Below, piece by piece: positions 19,642-34,878 of a stretch of DNA of 64,000 nt. The stretch lies in sequence record PQ900156.1; one strand, written 5' to 3'. The notes below the pieces were generated by a model. The model was not told the DNA's origin. It saw nothing but the letters and a program-made list of their open reading frames with translations, and searched no databases. The number at the start of each line of letters is the position of its first letter. Position 1 is the first letter of the stretch. Position numbers and translations under genes: made by a program. Source of the DNA: Escherichia phage vB_EcoP_ShWW44.

Positions 19642-21690
19642 ATGAAAATCGAACTGATTTCTATCATCGCACTGGCAGTTGACAGTCGTAACCTTACATT
19701 GTGGAAGCCCGATGGCTCCACGATTGTATATCCTCAGAGCGACCCACGGGTTGCTCGCATTGTATCTGAGGCTCAAACTAAAGGTCTGGGAACTACCAAA
19801 GACCAAATAGAAGTAAACATCGCACCAGAAGGAAACCTGCATACTGAATATCTGGAAGCAGAGAAGAACACTAACGGATTCGTCCGTTTCTTCAAGGTAG
19901 CTAAAGCTAAACTCAAAGAGTTCTTCCAGGATGGTACAGGTGTTCAACCTGCACACGTATTATCTGATATTAAGCTGGGTAATCCTACTAAGACACTGGT
20001 GTCTAAAGCTATGGATACCTTCCTGGCTGTACAGGCTAATGAACCAGAAGTAACTGTAACGAATGGTTGTTATGACAAACGTGACAACCTAATGTGGGTT
20101 ACTGGCTGGGACAAAGACCATAACCATCTTGCACTGGTTCGTTTTATTAACGACGTACTGGGTTGGGGTTATGACCATACTAATCGCATCCTTGCACGGG
20201 AATGGCCTATTGGAATCCGTGCAGTATCCGATGATGAAATGAGTGAGTTTGCTAAGCAAGCCAAGCACATCAAAGGAGTGCATATTGTATTTACCAGTCG
20301 TGATGTAACGCCATTTCCATATGTAGAAGTAGCTAAAACTACGAACCAGGATAAGCTGGCTGCTGCTTCTGAGAAGTTAGCTGCATTGGGGGCTATTAGC
20401 ACCGATGATGCTAACTTCCACACCGAAGTGAAAGAAGACGAAGTGGTTGTTGCTGTTACCAACAATGGGGTTATACCTGGAGTTGAAAACCTGCATCGTC
20501 ACTTGCGTCAGTCTGCCAAGCTGAAAGACTACAAGGGCTTTACTAAGTTCCTTGAGCGTCTGGCTCCGGTTATTAAAGACCGTCTGCACTCAGTAGAAGA
20601 CCTGATGAAGTTCATGGAAACTGCTGAATTACCTATTGCCGATGATGGTTCAATCCTGTTCCTTAAACGCCTTAAGTCTAGTGGTATAGAAAATGGTAAA
20701 CGTGTATTCGTTGACTGTCACTCAGGTAATATTCGTCAGTGGGTAGGCTGTAAAGTGCAGGTACGTGAAGACCTGGTAGACCCTGACCGCCGTCAGGATT
20801 GTTCTAACGGTCTGCACGTAGCATCCATGAGCTATATACGTGGCTTCGGTGGTAACGTAACTATCCTTGGTAAAGTAGCACCGGAAGATGTATTTGCTGT
20901 TCCTGAGTACAGCACTAATAAGATGCGTGTATCTGCGTATCACATTATTGCTGAACTACCGGAAGAGGAACGTAATAACGTTAACAATGGTATCTACCTG
21001 TCTAAGACAGAAGTAGGTAAGAAGCTACTTAATGATGCCATCGTTGGGAACCATAGCTCACCTACCACACTTATTATGGTTGGTGGTCATTATGGTACTA
21101 ACCTCAAATACACTAATCTAACGTCCGGCTCTGTAGAACAATTCCGTACAGTTGCTAGTAAGGAAGCACTAAACATGGAAGAGTCACTGAATGAAGCTGT
21201 AGCTGCTGAACCAGTGAAAGCTACCGACCTTAAACCTGTTATTAAGAAGGCTCCTACTGTGAAAGAACAAATCCAGGAACTGGTCAAAGAGTTCCTTAAT
21301 GCAACAACACCAGAAGATAAGTTAGCTGCTGCTGACCTTCTGGTAGAACTGCGTTCCAAAGCCAGAAAGCCTTGGGGTGCATTCGATGTAGGTAGTGATG
21401 TAGTAGCTAAGATTGCTGATGTACGTACTACCTATACAGCTAAGCCTATTGGTAAACCTAAAGCTGTTAAGCAGGATAAGACAGTTAAACCCACTAAATC
21501 TAAGCCTGCTATTAATGGTACTAATGCCAATATCATCAGAGGTTATCTAGCAGATAGTGGTATGTCCGATTATCAGAAAGCCCACTCCATTCATGACCTG
21601 AAACGTGCAGCTAAGAAGTCATACGCTGCTATGGGTCTTACTGAAGAAGAGTGCAAAGCCATTGATAAACTGAAGCACCATCTTAAGTAA
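19642..21690 (+). CDS. rIIB: rIIB-like protein, 682 aa
   Basis: Adjacent to rIIA-like gene as in N4; no specific motif verified. Confidence 0.45.
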   Translation: MKIELISIIALAVDSRNLTLWKPDGSTIVYPQSDPRVARIVSEAQTKGLGTTKDQIEVNIAPEGNLHTEYLEAEKNTNGFVRFFKVAKAKLKEFFQDGTGVQPAHVLSDIKLGNPTKTLVSKAMDTFLAVQANEPEVTVTNGCYDKRDNLMWVTGWDKDHNHLALVRFINDVLGWGYDHTNRILAREWPIGIRAVSDDEMSEFAKQAKHIKGVHIVFTSRDVTPFPYVEVAKTTNQDKLAAASEKLAALGAISTDDANFHTEVKEDEVVVAVTNNGVIPGVENLHRHLRQSAKLKDYKGFTKFLERLAPVIKDRLHSVEDLMKFMETAELPIADDGSILFLKRLKSSGIENGKRVFVDCHSGNIRQWVGCKVQVREDLVDPDRRQDCSNGLHVASMSYIRGFGGNVTILGKVAPEDVFAVPEYSTNKMRVSAYHIIAELPEEERNNVNNGIYLSKTEVGKKLLNDAIVGNHSSPTTLIMVGGHYGTNLKYTNLTSGSVEQFRTVASKEALNMEESLNEAVAAEPVKATDLKPVIKKAPTVKEQIQELVKEFLNATTPEDKLAAADLLVELRSKARKPWGAFDVGSDVVAKIADVRTTYTAKPIGKPKAVKQDKTVKPTKSKPAINGTNANIIRGYLADSGMSDYQKAHSIHDLKRAAKKSYAAMGLTEEECKAIDKLKHHLK

Positions 21691-21702
21691 TAGCCTGTTC
21701 AA

Positions 21703-21737
21703 ATAGCCTCACTTATAATAAAGTGAGGCTATCTTTG
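21703..21737 (+). terminator. rho-independent terminator (12-bp stem ATAGCCTCACTT / AAGTGAGGCTAT)
   Basis: Read directly. Confidence 0.6.
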
Positions 21738-21752
21738 AAGAGGAAATAAGCT

Positions 21753-22148
21753 ATGTCTAAAGTATTCAGAAGTAATCGCAAAGCAACTGATGAAGACATC
21801 ATTCGTATGAATGCTGTTGGTCTGTCCCTCGCAACTATCGCTAAGACGTTGGGGGTTCACCCCACTACGGTTACTTTGCGATTGCGTTCTCTAAACATTG
21901 AACCAGCCGATACACGTCGGACGTTCATGGAAAACGTATTACGACCTTTACCAACCCATGTGGCTGATTGGCTATCAGAACAAGTTGGTCCTGCTTATGA
22001 GATTCGTTCATATGTAAGAGACTTGATTCTGGAGGCATATAACAATCGTCACCTTAACCAAGAGAGTGAGCATGACAAGTTCATCCGTTTGTACGCTGGC
22101 AAATACGGAAGCCTGGTTCCGGAAAGCAGTACCAAATCCGACGAGTAA
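21753..22148 (+). CDS. helix-turn-helix DNA-binding protein, 131 aa
   Basis: HTH-like segment LSLATIAKTLGVHPTTVTLRL. Confidence 0.5.
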   Translation: MSKVFRSNRKATDEDIIRMNAVGLSLATIAKTLGVHPTTVTLRLRSLNIEPADTRRTFMENVLRPLPTHVADWLSEQVGPAYEIRSYVRDLILEAYNNRHLNQESEHDKFIRLYAGKYGSLVPESSTKSDE

Positions 22149-22164
22149 GAACATTAGTACCCAG

Positions 22165-22527
22165 ATGGGTTGCCATCTGGAAGAAGTAGAAGAAATGCTT
22201 CAGACCATTTATCCAAATGGTAGTTACGATGCAGAATTACTGCAACGTGCACAAGATGCCATTACAAATCTGGCAAACCATATGAAACGTAATGACGATG
22301 CTTATCGCATTGACGCTAGTACCAGTCTGCTGGATTCACTGGCAGATCAGATTGTTACAGCAACTGGCGTCGGTACTTTCCTTGGGATGAATGTCCCTGG
22401 AGCATTGGCTGAAGTCAATCGCTCAAACTATTCTAAGTTTGAAGATGGGGAACCTGTCTTCAATGAGAATAAGAAAGTTATGAAAGGGAAAGACTACACT
22501 CCCCCGGATTTAACCCCTTACATCTAA
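22165..22527 (+). CDS. hypothetical protein (120 aa; weak MazG-like NTP-pyrophosphohydrolase resemblance)
   Basis: Track ORF 22066..22527 overlaps upstream gene by 83 nt; internal ATG chosen. Confidence 0.35.
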   Translation: MGCHLEEVEEMLQTIYPNGSYDAELLQRAQDAITNLANHMKRNDDAYRIDASTSLLDSLADQIVTATGVGTFLGMNVPGALAEVNRSNYSKFEDGEPVFNENKKVMKGKDYTPPDLTPYI

Positions 22528-22547
22528 CCCTCTACGGAGGGTTTTTA
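22526..22547 (+). terminator. rho-independent terminator (AACCCTC-TACG-GAGGGTT + T5)
   Basis: Read directly. Confidence 0.65.
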
Positions 22548-22559
22548 CTGGAGATTTTA

Positions 22560-23870
22560 ATGTTTTCCAAACCTACCAAAGCCCCACTGAACAAGGGGCA
22601 AAAAGCGGTTGCGAAGGAGTTCTTCGACTTCCTGCTCAACCCTAATGCTACCGAATTCAATATTAGTGGCCCTGGGGGAACTGGCAAGACATTCCTGATG
22701 TCGCACCTCATTGATGACACTATGCCTGCATATATGGAAACTTGCTCCCTTATGGGAACCAAGCCCCTGTATAACGAAGTTGTTATGACTGCGACCACGA
22801 ACAAGGCTGCTGAAGTTCTGGCTCAGGCTACTGGACGTCCAACATCTACCTATCATTCCTTTCAGGGACTGATTGTTAAGAATGACTTTAAGACTGGTGA
22901 GGCTAACGTCGTACCATCTAAATCATTCAATATTAAGAAGAACAAAATCATCTTCGTAGATGAAGCATCCATGATTGACCGTCAGTTACTTAAGTATGCT
23001 CGTGAAGGTACTCACCAGTGTAAGCTGGTATTCGTAGGAGATGCTTCTCAGCTTCTGCCTGTTAAAGAGAATAAGTCTCCGGTATATGCAGGTAATATCC
23101 CAACACACTATCTGACTGAACAGATGCGTACCGATGCACCGGAACTCAAAGCATTGCACCAACAATTGCGTGATACGGTGGAAGGTAAGACGGGCTTCCT
23201 GCCTATTAAGTGTATTCCAGGCATTATTGACTGGGTACAAGAGGAAGAGATGGAGAAATTGGTTCTCAGTCACTTCACTCAACCTACTAATAGCCGTATT
23301 GTTGCTTATACGAATGACCAGGTTATTAATTACAATAACTACATTCGTGAGGCCAACGGATACGTAGGTGAGTACTCCATTGGTGAACAGCTAGTCTCTA
23401 ACTCTGCTGTTCGTTTAGGTGTGGATAATCGTCTGTCTATCGAACAGGATGTAAAACTCATCGACCAGGATAGTAGTACTCGCATGATTAAGGTTACAGG
23501 TGACCTGGAACTGGAAGTTCGTGATAGTACTCTGGACCTTGGTTATGGTGGTATTGTAAGTGAAGTTCCTGTTCCTACTGACCCAGACTACTTCAACCGT
23601 TTGGTTAAGTGGCTTGGTAAAGAGAAGAACTGGGAACCTTACTTCCGTCTTAAAGAAACCATTCCAGACCTGCGTGCTACTCATGCATGTACTGTCCATA
23701 AATCACAAGGCTCTACTTACGACACAATCTTTATTGATGCGAATGACCTCTCAAGCTGTCGCCAACCTGATATGGTTGCTCGCCTGCTTTACGTCGGTGT
23801 GTCACGTGCCCGTAAGCGAGTAGTGTTCTATGGCAATCTTGCCAGTAAGTATGGTGGTCTAACTTTCTAA
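22560..23870 (+). CDS. Dda/RecD-like SF1 DNA helicase, 436 aa
   Basis: Walker A GPGGTGKTF, Walker B VDEASMI, VHKSQGSTYDTIFID motif. Confidence 0.8.
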   Translation: MFSKPTKAPLNKGQKAVAKEFFDFLLNPNATEFNISGPGGTGKTFLMSHLIDDTMPAYMETCSLMGTKPLYNEVVMTATTNKAAEVLAQATGRPTSTYHSFQGLIVKNDFKTGEANVVPSKSFNIKKNKIIFVDEASMIDRQLLKYAREGTHQCKLVFVGDASQLLPVKENKSPVYAGNIPTHYLTEQMRTDAPELKALHQQLRDTVEGKTGFLPIKCIPGIIDWVQEEEMEKLVLSHFTQPTNSRIVAYTNDQVINYNNYIREANGYVGEYSIGEQLVSNSAVRLGVDNRLSIEQDVKLIDQDSSTRMIKVTGDLELEVRDSTLDLGYGGIVSEVPVPTDPDYFNRLVKWLGKEKNWEPYFRLKETIPDLRATHACTVHKSQGSTYDTIFIDANDLSSCRQPDMVARLLYVGVSRARKRVVFYGNLASKYGGLTF

Positions 23871-23880
23871 GGGAGGATAT

Positions 23881-24411
23881 ATGCCTCAGATTGGTTCAGC
23901 GACTATTGGTCAGGTTGCCAATAGCAGTGAGATAGTCAAACACCTGTTCTTAGCAGAACTGGTTCGTCTTGATAGTGTGTTAAACGGTATCATTGATAAG
24001 AACGACCGTATCAATGGTATAGATGTATCGGCTGGATTCCTTTATCAAGGGGAGTTCTATCAGCGTTCTAATGCTGCCAGACCTCCAACCTACGGTGAAC
24101 GACTAACCCTTAATCCAGAACTATGGCCTGCAATGGACAAGTATCTGAAAGCCTCCAGTCGTCTGATTATGGAAGTACACCTTGTGAACCAGACTGTATA
24201 TCGCCTGGTTCGAGGTTGTATGTCTTATCAGGATGTACGTGATGCTTTACCTGAATGCCTGGTAGCTCAAGACCAGACTGGTAAGTACAAGGAACTACCA
24301 CGTACTCGTGAAGCAGCCTGGACACTTGCTGGTGATCCCATGGCAATAAAACAATATGAGAAGATTCTTCCCTCTATTGAGTATTATGCAGCTTCCCATC
24401 TGATTTTCTAA
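23881..24411 (+). CDS. hypothetical protein (176 aa)
   Basis: ORF with GGGAGGA RBS. Confidence 0.5.
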   Translation: MPQIGSATIGQVANSSEIVKHLFLAELVRLDSVLNGIIDKNDRINGIDVSAGFLYQGEFYQRSNAARPPTYGERLTLNPELWPAMDKYLKASSRLIMEVHLVNQTVYRLVRGCMSYQDVRDALPECLVAQDQTGKYKELPRTREAAWTLAGDPMAIKQYEKILPSIEYYAASHLIF

Positions 24412-24420
24412 GGTAAAGCT

Positions 24421-27000
24421 ATGCGTTACATCACCTCTCAAGATACGGGTAAGTATCCTATTGCTATCCTCGGTCATCAAATCCGAAGGGAGGAGATAAT
24501 TAAAACCTACCTGCTGCCTAATGACCTAAGCATGGAAGATTTTATCTTCATTGAACTTCATTCTGCCCCAGGTAAAAAGAAGACCCCTGCAAGGGAAATT
24601 AAAGAGTTCATACAGCAGGAACTGCAACAAGTACTGGATGATGCAGAGACTCAATACATAATCTGTACCGATTCTGATTACTTTAAAATACTGACTAAAG
24701 AAGCTAAAGCAGAGGCTAACCTCGGCTATGTTTGTGACTCAGTATGGGGTAAGCAGAAGGTTATCTATGCACCTAGCTACAGGCAGGTCTTTTATAACCC
24801 ACCTGTAGTGAAATCCAAGATTGCTCAGGGTATGGATGCATTACTTAACCACATACGTGGTCAATATGCTGAACCAGGTCAAGGAATCATTGAGTTTGAA
24901 GCCTACCCGGATACCCCAGAAAAGATTAAAGCCTGGTTAGACCAGTTGCTTGAGATGAATAAGCCTCTGGCTATAGACATTGAAGCATTCGGTTTAAAGC
25001 ACTATAACGCAGGCATAGGAACAATTACATTCTGTTGGAGTAAGACACAAGGCATAGCCTTTAATGTGGACTACGAGCCGATTCCTGGGGCTACTGAAGC
25101 ACCTTACGGGCGTATCAACAGAAATGATATTGTTCGAAATCTTCTACGTGAGTTCTTCATTAAGTACACCCAACGGCAGATGTATCACAATATTAGCTAT
25201 GACGTGTACGTACTCATCTATCAGTTATTCATGGATAACCTGATTGATACAGAAGGCTTATTACATGGCATGGAAATCATGCTACGTAACTGGGATTGCA
25301 CTAAGTTAATCACCTACCTGGCTACTAATAGTTGTGCTGGTAATCACCTTAGTCTGAAAGACCAGGCCCAGGAGTATGCTGGTAACTATGCTCAGGATGA
25401 TATTAAAGACATTCGTCTTATTCCTAATGAGCAACTGTTACGTTACAACCTCATTGATGGTTTATGTACGTGGTACACATATGAGAAGCACTGGGATACT
25501 CTCGTTGCTGATGACCAATTGGATGTTTACAACAACATCTTTAAGCCAGCTTGTGAAGATATTATCCAGATGCAGTTAACCGGTATGCCCATGAATATGG
25601 ATACCGTTAACCAAGTAGCTAAGGAGATGGAAACTGACAGGAACCAGGCTCTGAAAACTATTCGCGAGTCCAAGCTCATGAAGAACTTCACCCTGATGCT
25701 TCGTCAGGAATGGGTAGATGATAAGAATGCTAAGCTGAAGAAAAAACAAGTAACGCTTGCTGACTGTGACATCGAGTTTAATCCAAACTCTGGTCCACAA
25801 CTACAGAAGCTGTTATTTGATTATATTGGCTTACCAGTTCTTGGTCTTACTAAGAGCAAGCAACCTGCTACTGATGGTGACACCATTAAAACACTGCGTA
25901 CACATACGCAGAGTGAAGATGTTAAGGAACTGCTCAATGCACTTATCGACTATAAGCTCGTGGATAAAATTATCACTTCATTCATCCCGGCTTTCCGTAA
26001 TGCACAACCTGGGCCAGATGGATGGTACTACCTATTCGGCAACCTCAATCTGGGGGGAACGGTTTCTGGTAGATTATCTGCCTCCGAGCCAAATCTGCAA
26101 ACCATTCCGTCTGGCTCCAAATACGCCAAGAAGATTAAAAAATGCTTCGAAGCACCACCAGGTTGGATCTTTTGTGGGCTGGACTTTGCAAGCCTTGAAG
26201 ACCGTATCTCAGCTTTAACTACTAAAGACCCACAGAAGCTTAAGGTATATACCGATGGCTATGATGGTCACAGTCTCCGTGCATATGCTTACTTCGGTGA
26301 GCAGATGCCAGACATAGAAGACACGGTAGAATCCATTAACTCCATTCAACACAAGTACAAATCATTACGTAGTGACTCGAAGGCTCCAACCTTCTTGCTT
26401 ACCTATGGTGGTACGTATATGGGCTTAATGAAAAACTGTGGCTTCTCTGAAGAAAAGGCCAAGACTACAGAGAAACGTTATCACGACCTCTATGTAGTTA
26501 GCGACATGTGGGTTCAGGCTAAGCTAGACGAAGCTGCCAAAACTGGTTATGTTACTGCCGCATTCGGTTTGAGAGTGCGTACTCCTTTACTGGCTCAAGT
26601 ATTACGTGGGACATGTAAGACTCCGTATGAAGCAGAAGCAGAAGGCAGAACTGCTGGTAATGCTTTAGGGCAAAGCTGGTGTCTACTGAATAACCGTGCT
26701 GGTTCAGAATTTATGCGTAAAGTCAGAGCCAGTGAGTTCAGGTTAGATATTCGTCCTAGTATTCATATTCACGATGCTCAGTACTTCATGATTCGTGACA
26801 ACATGGATACCTTGCAATTCACGAACAAGCACTTGGTTGAAGCCGTTAACTGGCAAGACCATCCTGATATTGCTCATCCAGAAGTTGGTTTGGGTGGGGA
26901 ACTATCCTTGTTTTACCCAACGTGGGCTAACGAGATTGAAATTCCAAATCACGCTACCCCAGAAGAAGTTCATCAAATAATTCAAAAGGCATTCGCATGA
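24421..27000 (+). CDS. family A DNA polymerase with 3'-5' exonuclease domain, 859 aa
   Basis: Exo motif DIEAFGL; GRLSASEPNLQTIP; LDFASLEDR motif A; IHIHDAQY motif C. Confidence 0.9.
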   Translation: MRYITSQDTGKYPIAILGHQIRREEIIKTYLLPNDLSMEDFIFIELHSAPGKKKTPAREIKEFIQQELQQVLDDAETQYIICTDSDYFKILTKEAKAEANLGYVCDSVWGKQKVIYAPSYRQVFYNPPVVKSKIAQGMDALLNHIRGQYAEPGQGIIEFEAYPDTPEKIKAWLDQLLEMNKPLAIDIEAFGLKHYNAGIGTITFCWSKTQGIAFNVDYEPIPGATEAPYGRINRNDIVRNLLREFFIKYTQRQMYHNISYDVYVLIYQLFMDNLIDTEGLLHGMEIMLRNWDCTKLITYLATNSCAGNHLSLKDQAQEYAGNYAQDDIKDIRLIPNEQLLRYNLIDGLCTWYTYEKHWDTLVADDQLDVYNNIFKPACEDIIQMQLTGMPMNMDTVNQVAKEMETDRNQALKTIRESKLMKNFTLMLRQEWVDDKNAKLKKKQVTLADCDIEFNPNSGPQLQKLLFDYIGLPVLGLTKSKQPATDGDTIKTLRTHTQSEDVKELLNALIDYKLVDKIITSFIPAFRNAQPGPDGWYYLFGNLNLGGTVSGRLSASEPNLQTIPSGSKYAKKIKKCFEAPPGWIFCGLDFASLEDRISALTTKDPQKLKVYTDGYDGHSLRAYAYFGEQMPDIEDTVESINSIQHKYKSLRSDSKAPTFLLTYGGTYMGLMKNCGFSEEKAKTTEKRYHDLYVVSDMWVQAKLDEAAKTGYVTAAFGLRVRTPLLAQVLRGTCKTPYEAEAEGRTAGNALGQSWCLLNNRAGSEFMRKVRASEFRLDIRPSIHIHDAQYFMIRDNMDTLQFTNKHLVEAVNWQDHPDIAHPEVGLGGELSLFYPTWANEIEIPNHATPEEVHQIIQKAFA

Positions 27001-27302
27001 CCAAAAGTACTAAAGAAACTGTTGTCAGAAAATATCATTGGATGGTAGCAGCACAGGTAGTATTCCAACTTCCTAAAGTGGATGATGGTTCCCTGCTTAC
27101 CATGAACACAATGTTGCTCACTGATGAACCTTATGTGACCTATAAAGATTTGGCCCGTGCCAATCACTCTCTGAAGATTAGTCTGGACCAGCGTTTCGAT
27201 ACCTCGGTTGACCTGAAAGACATCGTTTATCTGTCACTCAGCAATCTGGGTCTGATGTCTGAACCAGAGTTCCAGGCAAACATGATTCCCAAGGGGGAAT
27301 AA
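26997..27302 (+). CDS. hypothetical protein (101 aa)
   Basis: ORF; ATGA overlap with polymerase stop. Confidence 0.45.
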   Translation: MTKSTKETVVRKYHWMVAAQVVFQLPKVDDGSLLTMNTMLLTDEPYVTYKDLARANHSLKISLDQRFDTSVDLKDIVYLSLSNLGLMSEPEFQANMIPKGE

Positions 27303-27769
27303 TGACTAAGCTCTCCGGTGGTCTTAATAACTACTATGTAGTTTCAGTTAAGAATCCCCAACGGAAAGAGCAAGAGCCATATCAAGCAGAGTGTGAGGAT
27401 ATTATCCAAGCACTGGGCATGACCTTCGATGAAGGTTGTGCCTTTAAAGCTCTGTGGCGAAATGCTGCTGCCCGTATGGGTAATGGTAAACCCGGTAATA
27501 GTGCTGTATATGATGCTGAGAAAATGGTTCATTATACGAACCGAATTCTAGCTAAGGAGAAGTTAGTAGATGAATTGCCTGCCACAGATACCACTGCTAT
27601 TGGGAGATGCTGGCATTACCCAGGAAATGGGAAGCCTTATATAACAACAAACTTTCAGTTCATTGAGGTAGCCTACAAAGGTGAGCTAGATAATATAGTC
27701 AGCTATAACTTCGATGAGGTAGAGGGTATTCGCTGGAACCAGGTGCATAAATATAGGATTACCTACTAA
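27302..27769 (+). CDS. hypothetical protein (155 aa)
   Basis: ORF; 1-nt stop/start overlap. Confidence 0.5.
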   Translation: MTKLSGGLNNYYVVSVKNPQRKEQEPYQAECEDIIQALGMTFDEGCAFKALWRNAAARMGNGKPGNSAVYDAEKMVHYTNRILAKEKLVDELPATDTTAIGRCWHYPGNGKPYITTNFQFIEVAYKGELDNIVSYNFDEVEGIRWNQVHKYRITY

Positions 27770-28749
27770 TGAAAATAACCAACAATCATGATGTCTCACT
27801 GGCTCTGGCTGTATGGCTATTACATGACGAGTATGATTACGTAGACAATCCTAAGTATCTGTCTGTTACTACATTGCTTAAGCCCATTAAGCAAATCGTC
27901 ATGAAACATCGTGTAGATTTAAGTGACCAGTCAATTGATGTTATGGATTTTGTCTCCACATCAATGGGTACTGGTTTGCATGACTCTATCGAGAAAGCCT
28001 GGAAGCTGGGTCATAAGACTGCATTGAAGAAGTTGGGGTATCCTCAGCGAGTAATTGATGCAGTAGTCATTAACCCAACCAAAGCAGACTTTGATGCTAA
28101 CCCTGACCTTATCCCAATCTACATTGAACAGCGTGGAACCAGGGTAGTTAAGGGTTGGACTATCGGTGGTAAGTTCGACATCGTAACAGAGGGTCTGTTG
28201 CAAGACTTTAAGTCCACCTCAACCTATTCCTGGGTTGCTGGTTCCCGTGATGATGAACACAAGATGCAAGGCAGCTTGTACCGTTGGATTCATAACGACA
28301 TCATTACCGAGGATGTAATTCGTATTAACTACATCTTCACTGACTTCATGAAGCATATGGCTAATAGCAATCCAAACTATCCTGCTAATCGTATTATGCA
28401 TAAGGATATTCCGTTGCTATCTGTCGATAAGACTGAACGTTGGGTAGAAGAGAAGATTCACCTCATTGAGAAGTACTGGAATGCCCCTGAAGAGGAAATT
28501 CCTGAATGTACTGACGAGGAGTTGTGGCGAACAGAACCACAGTTCAAATACTTCTCTGATGCTTCTAAGGTAGATGTACCTGGAGCCAGAAGTACCAAAA
28601 ACTTTGACGATATGGCATCTGCTCGTATCTTCATGGCTGAAAAAGGTGGCAAGGGTGCTATCAAGGTCGTGGAGGGGCAGGTTAAGCGTTGTCTGTACTG
28701 CCCTGTCGCATCCATTTGCAAACAAAGAGAGAGATATTTTCCATCATGA
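27769..28749 (+). CDS. putative PD-(D/E)XK (RecB/Cas4-like) nuclease with C-terminal Cys cluster, 326 aa
   Basis: GKFDIV ... QDFK (D ... D-x-K), QGSLY (QxxxY) and C-terminal CLYCPVASIC (C-x2-C-x5-C). Confidence 0.45.
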   Translation: MKITNNHDVSLALAVWLLHDEYDYVDNPKYLSVTTLLKPIKQIVMKHRVDLSDQSIDVMDFVSTSMGTGLHDSIEKAWKLGHKTALKKLGYPQRVIDAVVINPTKADFDANPDLIPIYIEQRGTRVVKGWTIGGKFDIVTEGLLQDFKSTSTYSWVAGSRDDEHKMQGSLYRWIHNDIITEDVIRINYIFTDFMKHMANSNPNYPANRIMHKDIPLLSVDKTERWVEEKIHLIEKYWNAPEEEIPECTDEELWRTEPQFKYFSDASKVDVPGARSTKNFDDMASARIFMAEKGGKGAIKVVEGQVKRCLYCPVASICKQRERYFPS

Positions 28750-30899
28750 GTATTGACCTTACCGGAGTAGTGCATCATCCGGCGATTGAAGAAATCGTAG
28801 ATGTGCTCTGCAATAAAACCCAGAATAATGACCGGGGATTTTTCCGTGTCGAAGTAGCCTACTTCTTGGCTAAAATGGCATCCTGCATGGGTGCAACCAT
28901 CGTAACTAAAGATCGTGGTGACCTGCCGGTAAACATCTACGCTATAGCGTTGGCTACATCTGGTTTCGGTAAAGGTCACTCAGTAAATATCATTGAAGAC
29001 GGGTTCATGACTGGCTTCCGTAAACGCTTTATGGAAGACACCATGCCCGTCATTGCAAATGATCGTCTATGGAAGATTGCTAACGAACGCTCTGCACGGC
29101 AGGGTACTGACCAGCAGGAAGAGTTTGATAAAGTTGAGGCAGAGTATAAACGTGCAGGGGCATATCCGTTTACGTTTGACTCAGGTACTCCACCAGCAGT
29201 TAAACAACTACGCCATAAACTATTAATGGCTGGATGTGGTTCAATCAATCTTCAGATTGATGAAATTGGTTCGAACCTGTTGGCTAACATGGATGTACTA
29301 ACCTTGTTCCTGGAGTTATATGACCAGGGAAAAGTAAAACAGAAGCTAACCAAGAATACTGCTGAAAGCGTTCGTGGTGAAGAATTGGATGGCAAAACTC
29401 CAACTAACCTGCTGCTGTTTGGTACACCAAGTAAGCTACTGGATGGTGGTCAGACTGAAGACCAGTTCTATGGCTTTCTTGATATAGGGTATGCACGTCG
29501 CTGTCTGTTTGCCACTGGTCACTTAGACAAAAGAGCACATGCAACACTAACCCCGGAAGAAATCTACCGTAACTTGATTAAACAAGATAACGTACAGACC
29601 CTTGGTAAGTGGGCTAACCATTTCCATAGTCTGGCTGATCCAAACCTGTTTGGTTTTAAGATGGTTGTGGAAGATGCAGTGGGTATTGCTCTGATTGCTT
29701 ACAAAATTGATTGTGAGAAACAAGCAGAAGCTATGGCTGACCACGAAGAAATTCGTAAAGCTGAAATTTCCCACCGTTATTTCAAAGCACTTAAACTGGC
29801 AGGAGCACTGGCGTTTGTTGACCAGAGTTCATTCATTGAGATGACTCACCTTAAACAAGCAATTCTGCTTGTAGAAGAATCTGGAGCAGCATTCCAGACA
29901 ATCCTCAATCGTGAGAAGGCTTATGTGAAGCTGGCTAAATACATTGCTTCTGTAGGTAAAGAAGTAACTCATGCTGACTTGGTGGAGTCATTGCCTTTCT
30001 ATAAGAGCGGCAATGCAGCTCGTAATGAGATGATGACTCTTGCTACAGCATGGGGATATAAACAGCACATCATCATTAAGAAAACCTTCAATGAAGGTAT
30101 TGAATTCTTTCGTGGGGAAACTCTGAAAGAGACTGACATCAATGAGATGATAGTGGCATATAGTGATAGCTTTGCTTATGACTACATTGGTGAACGTGTA
30201 CCGTTCGACCAGTTGCATGTATTAACCCAAGCTCCCGGTATGCATTGGGTAAACCATCACATGAAGAATGGGCATCGTTCTGAAGAGAACGTTATTCCAG
30301 GATTTAACATGATTGTTATTGACTGTGATGGAGGAGTACCACTGCATACGTGCCATGAACTGATGAAGGAATATAAGTTCATGACCTATACCACTAAGCG
30401 TCATTCTGATGAAGAGAACCGATTCCGACTGATTATTCCAATGAACTATGAGTTACATCTCGATACTGAGGAATACAAAGAGTTCATGAATAACGTTATG
30501 TCTTGGCTACCGTTTGAAACGGATGAATCTGCTAACCAACGGGCCAAGAAGTGGATGTCCTGTGAGACTGGTTCCTATCATTACAATCTTGAAGCAAATC
30601 TGCTGGATGTGCGTGACTTTATTCCTCGTACTAGTAAGAACGAGCAGTTCCAGAACCAGATGAAGGAAGTACAGTCGTTGGATAATCTGGAGCGTTGGTT
30701 CGCTAGTCGTATTGCTACCGGTAATCGTAATAATCAAATGATTAAGTACGCACTGGCATTGGTTGACAGTGGTTGGGACTTTGCTCAAGTACAGCAAGCC
30801 GTCCACTCATTCAATAAGAAACTGGCTAATCCATTACCAGATGATGAATTGAATGCAACCGTAATGGTCACCGTGGCTAAACGCTTCGCTGGCAAGTAA
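28746..30899 (+). CDS. replication protein, primase/helicase-like (N4 primase-region homolog), 717 aa
   Basis: Large replication-module ORF; degenerate P-loop-like SGFGKGHS; IVIDCDGG segment; start moved to ATGA-coupled ATG at 28746. Confidence 0.45.
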   Translation: MSIDLTGVVHHPAIEEIVDVLCNKTQNNDRGFFRVEVAYFLAKMASCMGATIVTKDRGDLPVNIYAIALATSGFGKGHSVNIIEDGFMTGFRKRFMEDTMPVIANDRLWKIANERSARQGTDQQEEFDKVEAEYKRAGAYPFTFDSGTPPAVKQLRHKLLMAGCGSINLQIDEIGSNLLANMDVLTLFLELYDQGKVKQKLTKNTAESVRGEELDGKTPTNLLLFGTPSKLLDGGQTEDQFYGFLDIGYARRCLFATGHLDKRAHATLTPEEIYRNLIKQDNVQTLGKWANHFHSLADPNLFGFKMVVEDAVGIALIAYKIDCEKQAEAMADHEEIRKAEISHRYFKALKLAGALAFVDQSSFIEMTHLKQAILLVEESGAAFQTILNREKAYVKLAKYIASVGKEVTHADLVESLPFYKSGNAARNEMMTLATAWGYKQHIIIKKTFNEGIEFFRGETLKETDINEMIVAYSDSFAYDYIGERVPFDQLHVLTQAPGMHWVNHHMKNGHRSEENVIPGFNMIVIDCDGGVPLHTCHELMKEYKFMTYTTKRHSDEENRFRLIIPMNYELHLDTEEYKEFMNNVMSWLPFETDESANQRAKKWMSCETGSYHYNLEANLLDVRDFIPRTSKNEQFQNQMKEVQSLDNLERWFASRIATGNRNNQMIKYALALVDSGWDFAQVQQAVHSFNKKLANPLPDDELNATVMVTVAKRFAGK

Positions 30900-30955
30900 G
30901 CAAACAGGAGTCTTTCTTTGGTTTGAAGGACTCCTAAATTAAATGAGGAAAAATA

Positions 30956-31708
30956 ATGTCCGAAGTAATTCCCAATGATATGAACACTCAGCTAATCCTG
31001 ATTGCAGGATTCTCAGCGAGTGGTAAATCAGCATCACTGCGTAACATCCGGAACCAGGAACGCTGGCTCTATCTGAATACTGAAGCAGGTAAACGTCTGC
31101 CTTTCCGTAATAAGTTCAATACCTACAACATTGAAGACCCATACCAAATCTGGGAAGCATTTGATGTTGCATCTCCTGGTGGAGAAATGGCAGATGATGT
31201 TGATGGTATCATCATTGACTCAGCAACCTTTATGATGGATATGCTGGAATCTCAGTATGTACTGCCTTCTGCAAACACACAAAAGGCATGGGGTGACTTT
31301 GCACAGTTCTTTAAGATACTGCTGCAACAGAAAGTCGTTAAGTTTGGTAAGCCAGTGATTATTACTGCTCATGCTAAAGACGAACTGGATGAAGCTGCTG
31401 GTGTGATGAAAACGTTCATCCCAGTGAAAGGCTCTCTGAAGAATAACGGGCTTGAAGCCTACTTCTCTACTGTGGTTTACGCAGAACGTGTAGACATCAA
31501 AGAACTGGAGAAGTATGGGAACAAGATGTTAGAAATTACGGAAGAGGAACGTGACTTAGGATATAAGCACGTATTCCAGACCCGTCCAACTAAGAAGTCG
31601 GTTGGTAAACGACTTCGTTCCCCAATGGGTATGTTCGATAAGTCCGAGACTTACATTGATAACGATGCCCAGAAACTCTTAGACCATCTGGCTGAATACT
31701 ACGCTTAA
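30956..31708 (+). CDS. P-loop ATPase (AAA_24/Sak4-like), 250 aa
   Basis: Walker A GFSASGKS, Walker B IIIDS. Confidence 0.55.
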   Translation: MSEVIPNDMNTQLILIAGFSASGKSASLRNIRNQERWLYLNTEAGKRLPFRNKFNTYNIEDPYQIWEAFDVASPGGEMADDVDGIIIDSATFMMDMLESQYVLPSANTQKAWGDFAQFFKILLQQKVVKFGKPVIITAHAKDELDEAAGVMKTFIPVKGSLKNNGLEAYFSTVVYAERVDIKELEKYGNKMLEITEEERDLGYKHVFQTRPTKKSVGKRLRSPMGMFDKSETYIDNDAQKLLDHLAEYYA

Positions 31709-31717
31709 GCGTTTGCC

Positions 31718-31744
31718 TGGTTGTTAATCACTTATTAGGAAAAT
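31718..31744 (+). promoter_or_regulatory. conserved leader motif TGGTTGTTAATCAC..TTAGGAAAAT (copy 2, upstream of SSB-like gene)
   Basis: Matches 5979-6004 with one mismatch and one indel. Confidence 0.4.
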
Positions 31745-31747
31745 CAT

Positions 31748-32551
31748 ATGTCATTGTTCAGTAATCTGAAAGAAAAAACCAAAAACGTTGAAGCTGTTAA
31801 AGACTCCCTGGGTGGTGGTGGCTTCGGTGCAAAAGAGTCCGATATCTACACTGGTACTGTAAAAGTAGCTTACGTAGGCAAAGCTGACTCTGGTGCAGAC
31901 TGGATGCAGTTAATCATCGAAGACCTGAAGAACTCAGATAGCGTACCTGCCGGTGAGTTCCGTGCTCAGGTGTACTTCACTTCTGGTAATGCTAAAGGTA
32001 ACAAGCCGACTTACGAGAAGAACGGTAAAGAATACTTCCTGCCTGGCTACACTGTCATTAATGACATGATGCTGATGGCTACTGGTACTGAACTGCCTGA
32101 AGCAGACTTCGAAGAGAAGATTGTTAAAGTCTACGATTTCGATGCTAAAGCAGAAGTTAATAAGTCTGTCATGGTTCCAGTTGAACTGGTTGGGCAGACT
32201 GTTACCTTCGCTCTGGAAAAGGTTCTGGAATCCAAGCAGGTTAAGGGTGACAACGGTTACGTTGATTCCGGTGAAACTCGTGAAGTAAACGAGATTCAGA
32301 AAGTGTTTCACCCGGAACTGCTGGTCACAGTCGTCGAGGCTCAGGAAGCAGAGAAGGCTGAGAAAGAACTGACCCCAGAACTGGCTGTATTCTATGCAGC
32401 ATGGTTAGAGAAGAACAAAGGCAAGACTCGTGATAAGACCAAGGGTTCTGCTGGTGGTAATGGTAAAGGTGGCTTACCTCCTAAACCAGGTGCAGGTGCT
32501 GGCACGGGTACTGCTCCTGCTGGTGGTAAATCACTGTTCGGTAAACGTTAA
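31748..32551 (+). CDS. single-stranded DNA-binding protein-like (N4 SSB-like), 267 aa
   Basis: Size and position as recalled for N4 gp45; Gly-rich flexible C-terminal tail; no OB-fold motif verified. Confidence 0.45.
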   Translation: MSLFSNLKEKTKNVEAVKDSLGGGGFGAKESDIYTGTVKVAYVGKADSGADWMQLIIEDLKNSDSVPAGEFRAQVYFTSGNAKGNKPTYEKNGKEYFLPGYTVINDMMLMATGTELPEADFEEKIVKVYDFDAKAEVNKSVMVPVELVGQTVTFALEKVLESKQVKGDNGYVDSGETREVNEIQKVFHPELLVTVVEAQEAEKAEKELTPELAVFYAAWLEKNKGKTRDKTKGSAGGNGKGGLPPKPGAGAGTGTAPAGGKSLFGKR

Positions 32552-33105
32552 TGAAAATCCCAATTGTCGGTGCAGACATTAGTCTCCGCAATTGGGGTTT
32601 AGCTCGTGGGATGCTGGACATTGAGTCCGGCGTCTTTGAGCAGGTCGAACTTAAGCTGGTTCAAACTGGAGTTGACCACAACAAACAAGTTCGAACCAAC
32701 TCCAAAGATATACAAGCCGCTCACGATTTGTTTCTTGGTTGTGAGGAATGGATACGATCTGCTAAAGCAGTATTCGTAGAAGTACCGGTAGGCTCTCAGT
32801 CTGCTAACGGTATGAAATCCTACGGTGTATGCGTAGGATTAATAGGTGCATTTCGTGCATTGGGTTGTCCAATCTTTGAAGTATCCCCAATTGAAAACAA
32901 ACTTGCACTGGTAGGTGATAAAACTGCAGCCAAGGACACGATGATTCGTGCTGCTCATGCCATCTATCCTGAAGCCAACTGGCTCACTGATAAGAAAGGC
33001 AAACTTCTGAATAAGAATGAGCACTTAGCTGATGCAATCGGTGCAATCCATGCTGGTGTAAATCTCCCAGCTTTCCAGAACCTTATTAAGTTATTAAAGG
33101 CGTAA
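32551..33105 (+). CDS. RuvC-like Holliday junction resolvase, 184 aa
   Basis: N-terminal IVGADISLRNWG, central FVEVP, C-terminal HLADAIGAIHAG pattern. Confidence 0.65.
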   Translation: MKIPIVGADISLRNWGLARGMLDIESGVFEQVELKLVQTGVDHNKQVRTNSKDIQAAHDLFLGCEEWIRSAKAVFVEVPVGSQSANGMKSYGVCVGLIGAFRALGCPIFEVSPIENKLALVGDKTAAKDTMIRAAHAIYPEANWLTDKKGKLLNKNEHLADAIGAIHAGVNLPAFQNLIKLLKA

Positions 33106-33106
33106 T

Positions 33107-33550
33107 ATGCAAATCATTTTGAACCAGTCCGAAGTAGAAGCTGCTGTACAGGCTTATGTAGATGATCAAATCAATCTTGCTGGTGACATTAATATTGTCA
33201 TCAATGCAGATGGTACTGCCTCTGTTGGTATCAACGAAGAGGTAAGTCACGAAGATGACTCCCCACCCGTGGTAGAGAAGAAAACTCGTCGTTCTCGTAA
33301 GAACCCACAAGAAGCTAAACACCGTCCGGTAGAACCAGAGCCGGAAGAAGTAGTTGGAGAGCTAAAGGTGGAAGAAACCCAGACCTCTACTGGTGGTCCG
33401 AACGAGAGTTCTACGCCGGAACCTGAAGAAGAAGCAGTAGCTGAACCAGAAGCACAAGAAGAAGTTGTGCAGGAAGAGGTTAAGGCTGAAGAACCGGCAG
33501 AGAAACCTGCTACTAAGCCTTCACTGTTCGCTGGCCTAAAACGTAGTTAA
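33107..33550 (+). CDS. acidic, Glu/Pro-rich low-complexity protein, 147 aa
   Basis: ORF; compositional bias. Confidence 0.45.
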   Translation: MQIILNQSEVEAAVQAYVDDQINLAGDINIVINADGTASVGINEEVSHEDDSPPVVEKKTRRSRKNPQEAKHRPVEPEPEEVVGELKVEETQTSTGGPNESSTPEPEEEAVAEPEAQEEVVQEEVKAEEPAEKPATKPSLFAGLKRS

Positions 33551-33558
33551 TCTGGTAG

Positions 33559-33720
33559 GTGGCTCAGAAGCTGCTGCTAGGTGTGGTAGTGTTTATAGTC
33601 CTGATGCTACTACTGGTCAGGATTATAGACGTGTCGGCTCCATACATAGCTTTTATCATCACTGTCATTATCCTGTGGAAATGCAGTGGTAAACACGGTG
33701 GTGACAAGCCGCCAGAGTAA
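33559..33720 (+). CDS. small hydrophobic peptide (38-53 aa depending on GTG 33559 or ATG 33604 start)
   Basis: Manual read; single predicted TM helix. Confidence 0.25.
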   Translation: MAQKLLLGVVVFIVLMLLLVRIIDVSAPYIAFIITVIILWKCSGKHGGDKPPE

Positions 33721-34352
33721 CAACAACCGAACCAGTGTGCAGGAATACTCTCCCCTGTGCATTGGTTCAACTGAAGCTAATATGAACAAATTTACTATTC
33801 ACTGGCTCAATGGAAAGGTTAGTTCTTTCATGGGTGAAGAACCCGTTGAAGGAAAGAAAGTATTTCACATTGAATCGGAAGGATGCAAAATCTTAGTACC
33901 GTATGCTTGGTATAAAGAAGGTGAAGTAGAAGCATTAAAAAAGAGTAGTTAATATCGTGAAGGGTTCTGTTAGAATCCTTTGAGATAGGAACTCCTATCA
34001 TAACCTTTCTTAACTTAATCCTTGCCGTATGGCACTGACGCTAGGGTTTATGCCCATCCGTCAGGTAGACTATTTTAAGAATGGGTTATCACAGAAAATG
34101 TAAAGCAACATTCGGGTTAATCAATGGCCTCTCTCTATAGGGGCCATTTCTGAATCTTAGGCTATATCCCAAAGGTTAGTATCTTTGGGATAAGGCTTCA
34201 GATCCCTTATAAACTAACGCTCATGTTGAGCATAACACTAACCCCTACTGGCGGGTAATTCGATACGCTAGTCCTACAGCATCGAATTGTTAGGTCTTAC
34301 ATGCAACATAGGGTATAAAGGGAGGATTCGTCCCCTCCCTCCTATTATAATG

Positions 34353-34422
34353 GTCGGGGTAGCACGTAGGCATGTGCAGAAGGTCGCTACTTCTCTCGCT
34401 GGTTCGAATCCAGCCCCTGACC
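34353..34422 (+). tRNA. tRNA-like element 1 (non-canonical; isotype not assignable by hand)
   Basis: T-arm GCTGG-TTCGAAT-CCAGC; 7-bp acceptor pairing GTCGGGG/CCCTGAC with one G-U; D-stem GCAC/GTGC; short variable region; anticodon loop ambiguous. Confidence 0.35.
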
Positions 34423-34878
34423 TACTGACATCCTATCAATGAGTACATTAGGCTAACGTGCGGAGGTTTACACTGTAGCCGGTGTAGGTGGAGAAGACGG
34501 CAGGGTAGCTACCTGTGCTTAGTGTACTCTTTGATAGTTTTCGTAAGCGATTATGCGGTTTTTTAGAAATGAACCAATAACATAAATGCAAACGATGATG
34601 TTGTTCTGATGGCGGCGTAATAGCCTGTAAGTCAGCAAGGTCTTCCTATTCCTTGTAAATAAATTCGGCGCAGTGGCCCGCTGTAATTAATAATGGGCAC
34701 ACAACAGGTAAGAGCATTGGGTAATGTCAGCCTTGGTTCGAAGTCGAAAGACATGCGGTAATACCCAGCCAAAGTTCCAGTGCTCTTTCCGTTGTGGAAA
34801 TGCAAGCACAACAAGTCCAGACGATATCTGAGTGACTTTAAAAACAGATGGAGCCAGGTGGAATCCCTGGCAATCTAT

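Follow-up and report, generated by a model that had tools for sequence, protein, structure and literature searches.

gp42 of an N4-like Escherichia phage locus belongs to a family of predicted PD-(D/E)XK nucleases with four invariant cysteines

Results

gp42 is a member of the N4 gp42 family

This study concerns gp42, a protein of 326 amino acids encoded in the replication and recombination block of Escherichia phage vB_EcoP_ShWW44, and the function that it may serve there. The DNA analyzed, referred to here as the window, is a stretch of 64,000 nucleotides from this phage (sequence record PQ900156.1; one strand, 5' to 3'). A sequence-only reading of the window had proposed that gp42 is a Cas4/RecB-like PD-(D/E)XK nuclease with a cysteine cluster, and the 326-codon open reading frame (27769-28749) and every motif that it quoted are where it had placed them. 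By tblastn against phage records, the product is 100% identical to gp42 of Escherichia phage St11Ph5 (MG208881.1), encoded at the same coordinates. St11Ph5 is classified in Schitoviridae, Enquatrovirinae, Gamaleyavirus (N4-like), and its GenBank record labels gp42 "hypothetical protein." The N4 ortholog, gp42 of NC_008720, shares 71% identity with the St11Ph5 protein and is labeled "exonuclease" in RefSeq; the labels in sister phages are mostly "exonuclease" or "PD-(D/E)XK nuclease superfamily protein."

We found that gp42 matches PHROG 2139, "exonuclease," over its full length (E = 8.1e-152; residues 1 to 325 against profile positions 2 to 324 of 330). A homolog covering at least 80% of gp42 is present in 471 phage records. 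N4 gp42 and the Schitoviridae orthologs of PHROG 2139 occupy the same place between polymerase and primase, upstream of the genes for Sak4 and an SSB (a protein that binds single-stranded DNA), and there is no difference of substance between them and the protein studied here. gp42 thus falls within the N4 gp42 family. The exonuclease and PD-(D/E)XK assignments are already in the databases; the reading of gp42 as such a nuclease is correct but not new.

gp42 has a predicted PD-(D/E)XK core with invariant motifs

We modeled gp42 with AlphaFold2 on a 45-sequence alignment (mean predicted local distance difference test score, 89.1; predicted template modeling score, 0.78). The model was confident by these scores, and a restriction-endonuclease-like core fold is present in it. 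A Foldseek search of the PDB ranked Cas4 SSO0001 (4IC1) first (E = 2.8e-7). Against predicted viral structures, the best match was a Delftia N4-like ortholog (template modeling score, 0.89), followed by many viral PD-(D/E)XK or Cas4-like proteins. The PD-(D/E)XK core expected by the sequence-only reading was therefore found by both the model and the structural comparison.

Links to nuclease families at the level of sequence were weaker, yet consistent. PHROG 1706, the family of the Cas4-like protein SIRV2 gp19 (PF01930 and PF12705), was matched at E = 2.6e-10. When the gp42 and SIRV2 gp19 families were compared by hhalign (probability, 89%; E = 2e-6), motifs I, II, and III and the QxxxY motif were in register. 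This alignment spans only residues 29 to 189, and the C-terminal cysteine module lies outside it, presumably because of the insert described below. Part of SSO0001 could also be aligned by eye (SSO0001/gp42): ILGDILHLGLE/MGTGLHDSIE, KGRADAI/GGKFDIV, IEIK/QDFK, and HHKMQLQIY/EHKMQGSLY. Pfam PDDEXK_1 (PF12705) was matched at E ≤ 0.1 by 5 of 13 diverse family members, and the member from Planktothrix phage Pag-Yong1 scored above the gathering cutoff (34.5 bits versus 22). Four family members searched against NCBIfam had no match. Together, the fold, motifs, PHROG match, and hhalign result support the Cas4/RecB-like nuclease reading, with caveats that we return to below.

Conservation was scored in two sets of relatives. 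We searched 1.84 billion cluster representatives (50% identity clusters) with a profile; 4,074 relatives reached E ≤ 1e-3, and 3,053 of these reached E ≤ 1e-10. Of the best 150 representatives, the 148 that are full length, at 31 to 52% identity to gp42, form the first set; the second consists of 79 more distant IMG/VR relatives (non-N4 branch). G67, H71, E120, G134, D137, D146, K148, Q167, Y171, P205, and C247 are invariant in all 148 representatives. The motif and cysteine residues are also kept in all 79 IMG/VR relatives, save Y171 (77 of 79), and again at 24 to 26% identity in four non-N4 viruses: Leptospira phage LE4, Pag-Yong1, pelagiphage Baldr, and the methanogen-associated (archaeal) virus vir555. 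Members of the family occur in tailed phages whose hosts are proteobacteria, cyanobacteria, SAR11, or spirochaetes and in a methanogen-associated virus. The motif residues that the sequence-only reading had singled out are conserved among orthologs, and judging from their invariance in 148 representatives at 31 to 52% identity, the motifs are not chance matches.

Four invariant cysteines lie C-terminal of the core

gp42 has exactly four cysteines, C247, C308, C311, and C317, and in the 148 representatives these are the only alignment columns at which cysteine occurs in at least 10% of sequences. The last three form a triad whose CX2CX5C spacing is identical to that of the C-terminal triad of Cas4 and AddB (PMC3466216). 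In Cas4, Csa1, AddB, and SIRV2 gp19, three C-terminal cysteines and one near the N terminus hold an iron-sulfur (Fe-S) "staple" (PMC3466216). The Fe-S-type pattern proposed by the sequence-only reading held for its C-terminal part, the triad being kept in 147 of 148 representatives and 79 of 79 IMG/VR relatives. However, the canonical N-terminal cysteine is absent. Its position in gp42 is taken by P39, and this column contains P, S, or T in the representatives and P, S, A, or T in the IMG/VR relatives, not cysteine. All four cysteines are C-terminal of the QxxxY motif, and the topology is not that of a staple between the N and C termini. Both the missing N-terminal cysteine and the fourth invariant cysteine, C247, had escaped the earlier reading.

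C247 opens a family signature that follows a helix (residues 219 to 236). The distance between C247 and C308 is 53 to 65 residues in the representatives (mode, 56), and A285 and G296 are near-invariant. We infer that C247 is the fourth metal ligand. Most likely, given this pattern of conservation, C247, C308, C311, and C317 hold one metal center that stabilizes the C-terminal module, and the metal would probably be an Fe-S cluster and possibly zinc. We consider it rather unlikely that the four cysteines bind a structural zinc or that C247 is no ligand and the site has three cysteines. Zinc does occupy the equivalent site in the crystal of a structural neighbor, 3L0A (PMC3466216), but Fe-S nucleases share the CX2CX5C spacing, overexpression can introduce zinc artifactually at such sites (PMC3466216), and the presence of exactly four cysteines, all invariant, fits a four-ligand center.

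It is conceivable, although we would put it at somewhat less than an even chance, that the gp42 family is a distinct and undescribed variant of the Fe-S nucleases. Such a variant would have lost the N-terminal ligand and would use the cysteine of the C-T-D-E-E-x-W signature instead, so that the metal would clamp the inserted module of about 56 residues rather than staple the ends of the domain. The inserted module is perhaps a DNA- or partner-binding element. In the literature searched, we found no description of the relocated cysteine and inserted subdomain, which together make a modest structural point.

gp42 differs from Cas4 and other iron-staple nucleases

Cas4 SSO0001 of Sulfolobus solfataricus (4IC1) is a 5'-3' exonuclease on single-stranded DNA (ssDNA) and has a [4Fe-4S] cluster. 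Compared with its length of about 200 amino acids, gp42 has 326, and the N-terminal cysteine ligand is replaced by Pro or Ser. C247 of gp42 is located after the nuclease core and is followed by the subdomain of about 56 residues that Cas4 is without; the N4-like members have a further 39-residue insertion after motif I. In the "iron-staple" domains of AddB, Exo5, and Dna2, the first cysteine is N-terminal of the core and the cluster staples both ends of the domain (PMC3466216), whereas in gp42 all four are C-terminal of the core, and the protein stands alone, with no helicase fusion. SIRV2 gp19 keeps the canonical N-terminal cysteine and has no insert before the triad; gp42 is the opposite on both counts. 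Lambda Red-alpha and RecE, which supply the exonuclease of two-component phage recombinases, are without a cysteine cluster, unlike gp42, and the N4-like partner is Sak4 (RecA-like core) with a dedicated SSB, rather than Red-beta or RecT.

We found no match to Cas_Cas4 (PF01930, DUF83) at E ≤ 0.1 in any of the 13 diverse family members. There are also no cas genes near gp42, the neighbors being polymerase, primase, Sak4, SSB, and RuvC-like genes in a lytic phage replication and recombination block. With the PF01930 match, the N-terminal cysteine, and the cas context all lacking, gp42 is not Cas4 proper. It is nevertheless predicted to work and fold like the Cas4, AddB, and Exo5 nucleases.

gp42 homologs are linked to genes for annealing proteins

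The gene order in the window is polymerase gp39, gp40, gp41, gp42, primase gp43, Sak4-like gp44, N4-type SSB gp45, and RuvC-like gp46 (Table 1). The whole order from polymerase to RuvC is the same in N4, and the gp42-primase-Sak4 part recurs in LUZ7 and roseophage DS-1410Ws-06. We observed gp42 upstream of primase, Sak4, and SSB in St11Ph5, N4, phi G17, LUZ7, DS-1410Ws-06, and Vibrio phage 1.261.O; an exception is Vibrio phage 2.130.O, in which an AP2-domain gene comes next after the gp42 homolog.

Linkage to a gene for an ssDNA-annealing protein extends beyond the N4-like phages, and the annealing proteins concerned are not homologous to one another. Sak4 is one gene away from gp42 in the window. 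In LE4, the homolog adjoins RecT (PF03837), and in Pag-Yong1, ERF (PF04404) is one gene from it. In vir555, a Rad52_Rad22 (PF04098) gene lies downstream and overlaps the homolog gene. Among the 79 IMG/VR loci, a single-strand annealing protein (SSAP) of Sak/Erf type is encoded at most four genes downstream on the same strand in 64 (BLAST single-linkage clustering) and anywhere in the locus in 69 (iterated profile). Both counts merge Pfam SSAP_Sak and ERF matches in the sampled members, hence "Sak/Erf type" rather than one family; a single phmmer seed gave only 33 loci with a Sak neighbor. An SSB-like open reading frame of about 98 amino acids, without a Pfam match, is downstream in 54 of the 79 loci. 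Divergent upstream genes encode a RusA resolvase in 53 and a primase/helicase in 36.

In virion preparations of roseophage vB_DshP-R7L, a gp42-like protein (38 kDa) and a gp45-like SSB were among the proteins identified (PMC11934525). This finding more likely reflects abundant DNA-binding proteins carried over into the preparations than a structural role.

Features and neighbors of gp42 in the window

The coordinates of gp42, its motifs, and its neighbors are collected in Table 1. The primase-like neighbor that the sequence-only reading had noted is borne out by the profile matches of gp43. The 4-nucleotide overlap between gp42 and the primase gene is also found in N4 and phi G17, whereas there are short gaps in LUZ7, YH30, and Vibrio phage 1.261.O. 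In the sampled Schitoviridae, the two genes thus stay adjacent, but the overlap is not conserved. By program, the primase open reading frame was called from a TTG at 28689, within gp42, but annotation and conservation place the start codon at the ATG of 28746.

Table 1. Features of gp42 and neighboring genes, with positions in the window
Feature	Position	Strand	Evidence or remark
gp42 coding sequence, N4 gp42-type PD-(D/E)XK exonuclease (predicted), 326 amino acids, 37.5 kDa	27769..28749	+	Open reading frame and translation
P39, position of the canonical N-terminal Cys ligand (Cas4/AddB type)	27883..27885	+	hhalign places P39 on the first Cys of the SIRV2 gp19 family
RecB-family motif I, G67-x3-H71-x3-E75 (GTGLHDSIE)	27967..27993	+	E75 in 143/148; aligns with ILGDILHLGLE of SSO0001 and with the SIRV2 gp19 family
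Insertion of ~39 residues, K79-I117	28003..28119	+	Only in N4-like (Schitoviridae) members; none in the LE4, Pag-Yong1, Baldr, and vir555 homologs
Motif II, GKFDIV (G134-V139), predicted catalytic D137	28168..28185	+	G134 and D137 in 148/148 and 79/79; aligns with GRIDIV of SIRV2 gp19
Motif III, D146-F-K148, (D/E)xK, in QDFK	28204..28212	+	148/148 and 79/79; aligns with EIK of SIRV2 gp19 and SSO0001
QxxxY motif, QGSLY, Q167-Y171	28267..28281	+	Q167 invariant; Y171 in 148/148 and 77/79
C247-T-D-E-E-L-W253 family signature, putative fourth ligand	28507..28527	+	C247 in 148/148 and 79/79; W253 in 147/148 and 79/79; kept to 24% identity
Conserved inserted beta-beta-alpha-beta subdomain, C247 to C308	28510..28689	+	Model: strands 258-262, 277-279, and 297-301; helix 282-291
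Triad C308-x2-C311-x5-C317 (CLYCPVASIC)	28690..28719	+	Each Cys in 147/148 (gap in one sequence) and 79/79
TAATG overlap, gp41 stop/gp42 start	27767..27771	+	Sequence
ATGA overlap, gp43 start/gp42 stop	28746..28749	+	Sequence
gp43 primase ("DNS protein"), downstream neighbor	28746..30899	+	PriCT_1, E = 9e-7; PHROG 2135 "DNA primase," E = 0
gp44 Sak4-like ssDNA-annealing protein, proposed partner	30956..31708	+	PF13479 AAA_24, E = 5e-11; PHROG 124 "Sak4-like ssDNA annealing protein," E = 1e-49
gp45 N4-type SSB, proposed partner	31748..32551	+	PHROG 743, E = 2e-89
gp46 RuvC-like Holliday-junction resolvase	32551..33105	+	PHROG 159, E = 2e-41

Several further observations concern the neighbors. 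The genes gp39 to gp43 (24421-30899) are chained by stop/start overlaps: ATGA at 26997-27000, TAATG at 27300-27304, and the two overlaps that flank gp42. The polymerase gene is intact in the window (24421-27000), whereas in phi G17, a close relative, an HNH endonuclease gene divides it in two; HNH homing endonucleases are also listed near gp42 in PBM-2 and Uz-1. In gp41 (27302-27769), only the first ~87 residues have PHROG matches. There are several of these; one, to "3'-phosphatase, 5'-polynucleotide kinase," involves just the C-terminal end of the profile, and gp41 has no Pfam or NCBIfam match. The "polynucleotide kinase" label that phi G17 and other relatives give to this gene seems to be an over-transferred annotation. 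The NCBIfam profile for BrxF, a P-loop protein of BREX-3, was matched weakly by the Walker A region of gp44 (E = 0.002; 17.9 bits, under the cutoff of 50), which is probably generic P-loop similarity.

We also scanned for host-type transcription signals. Matches to sigma-70-type promoters are rarer in 21500-34500 than in dinucleotide-preserving shuffles (13 versus 25.0 ± 4.2). Such depletion would fit transcription by a phage RNA polymerase, as for the N4 middle genes. From polymerase to primase, the sigma-70 promoter and terminator scan, which is blind to N4-type middle promoters, gave no convincing internal signal.

Discussion

We think it likely, though well short of certain, that gp42 is an active nuclease and that it serves as a 5'-3' end-resection exonuclease feeding recombination by gp45 and gp44. 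In structure, gp42 would fall into the RecB/Cas4/Exo5/AddB "iron-staple" class of PD-(D/E)XK nucleases, with Mg-dependent activity. It would resect double-stranded ends (genome termini, breaks, or replication intermediates) in the 5'-to-3' direction, leaving 3' single-stranded tails. The tails would be coated by the N4-type SSB gp45 and paired by the Sak4-like gp44, leading to recombination-dependent replication or concatemer formation, and branched products would be resolved by the RuvC-like gp46. Association of an exonuclease gene with interchangeable partners (annealing proteins, SSBs, and resolvases) is a pattern known from lambda Red-alpha/beta and RecE/RecT. Cas4 SSO0001 and AddB, which have the four-Cys Fe-S staple, are 5'-3' exonucleases (PMC3466216), and this polarity, together with the pattern of neighbors, suggests 5'-3' end resection. 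The proposed partners are consistent with this function: the Sak4 of HK620 anneals ssDNA and is stimulated by its cognate SSB, a distant relative of N4 gp45 (PMC5928155), and the title of Choi et al. 1995 states that the N4 SSB is needed for recombination. N4 also encodes a 5'-3' exonuclease, purified in 1986, that may be gp42.

Several observations weigh against the end-resection proposal or the nuclease assignment beneath it. The PDDEXK_1 score of gp42 itself (17.5 bits; E = 0.004) is under the gathering cutoff of 22. PDB sequence searches returned nothing usable, whether the query was gp42 alone or a profile of 13 sequences, so homology rests on the fold, the motifs, the PHROG and hhalign matches, and transitivity; the solved structures are linked to gp42 by fold comparison only. 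There is no conserved cysteine before the core, and any cysteine before H71 occurs in just 17 of the 148 representatives. Sak4 is not immediately adjacent in N4-like phages, as the primase gene sits between it and gp42. Polarity is not guaranteed by the relatives, since some Cas4 proteins are reported to cut with both polarities or to be endonucleases. Our literature searches for gp42 biochemistry returned genome-annotation tables only.

The main rival to end resection is a nuclease of the replication fork, which would clear Okazaki fragments of RNA primers or 5' flaps in the manner of Dna2/Exo5 or T7 gp6, together with the adjacent polymerase and primase. The position of gp42 between these two genes, its similarity to Exo5 and Dna2, and the absence of a 5'-3' exonuclease domain from the N4-type polymerase (PMC2784036) all fit this idea. 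However, what accompanies the homolog in the four named non-N4 viruses and most of the 79 IMG/VR loci is a conserved annealing protein rather than a polymerase. In addition, the literature of the 1980s has the 5'-3' exonuclease of host Pol I still needed for N4 replication; if so, the phage enzyme is not covering primer removal. We therefore regard a role in primer or flap removal as improbable, although the two roles are not mutually exclusive and could coexist.

The remaining two alternatives are unlikely on context. Many phage nucleases degrade host DNA, and PD-(D/E)XK domains are common in conflict systems, so that gp42 could be a host-DNA degradation or antidefense nuclease unrelated to phage recombination. 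This we consider very improbable, because gp42 is in the replication and recombination block of every sampled Schitoviridae genome and its linkage to SSAP, SSB, and resolvase genes is recurrent. Least probable of all is a CRISPR-related role, in which a phage-borne Cas4 would manipulate spacer acquisition by the host, as proposed for Campylobacter phages: a Cas4 protein ranks first in the structural comparison, the annotation of one family member reads "CRISPR-associated exonuclease, Cas4 family," and there is precedent for phage Cas4-like proteins that affect spacer uptake (PMC4283603 and PMC5704561), but we rejected this role on genomic context and the lack of a PF01930 match, as gp42 is a core gene with conserved neighbors in the sampled Schitoviridae, SSO0001 itself has no CRISPR link (PMC3466216), and a Cas4 phylogenomics paper sets pfam12705-type proteins apart from CRISPR-associated Cas4.

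If the relocated ligand is real, the gp42 family would lend itself to testing whether the metal cluster of RecB/Cas4-type nucleases serves as a structural staple of the domain or as an anchor of an accessory module. Either way, the relocated ligand adds a small increment, of interest to specialists in nuclease structure, and is not a new kind of system. For the phages themselves, the analysis corrects one "hypothetical protein" label, that of the St11Ph5 record, and offers a reasoned function, end resection within a Sak4/SSB/RuvC recombination module, for a gene present in all sampled N4-like phages, several of which are candidates for phage therapy.

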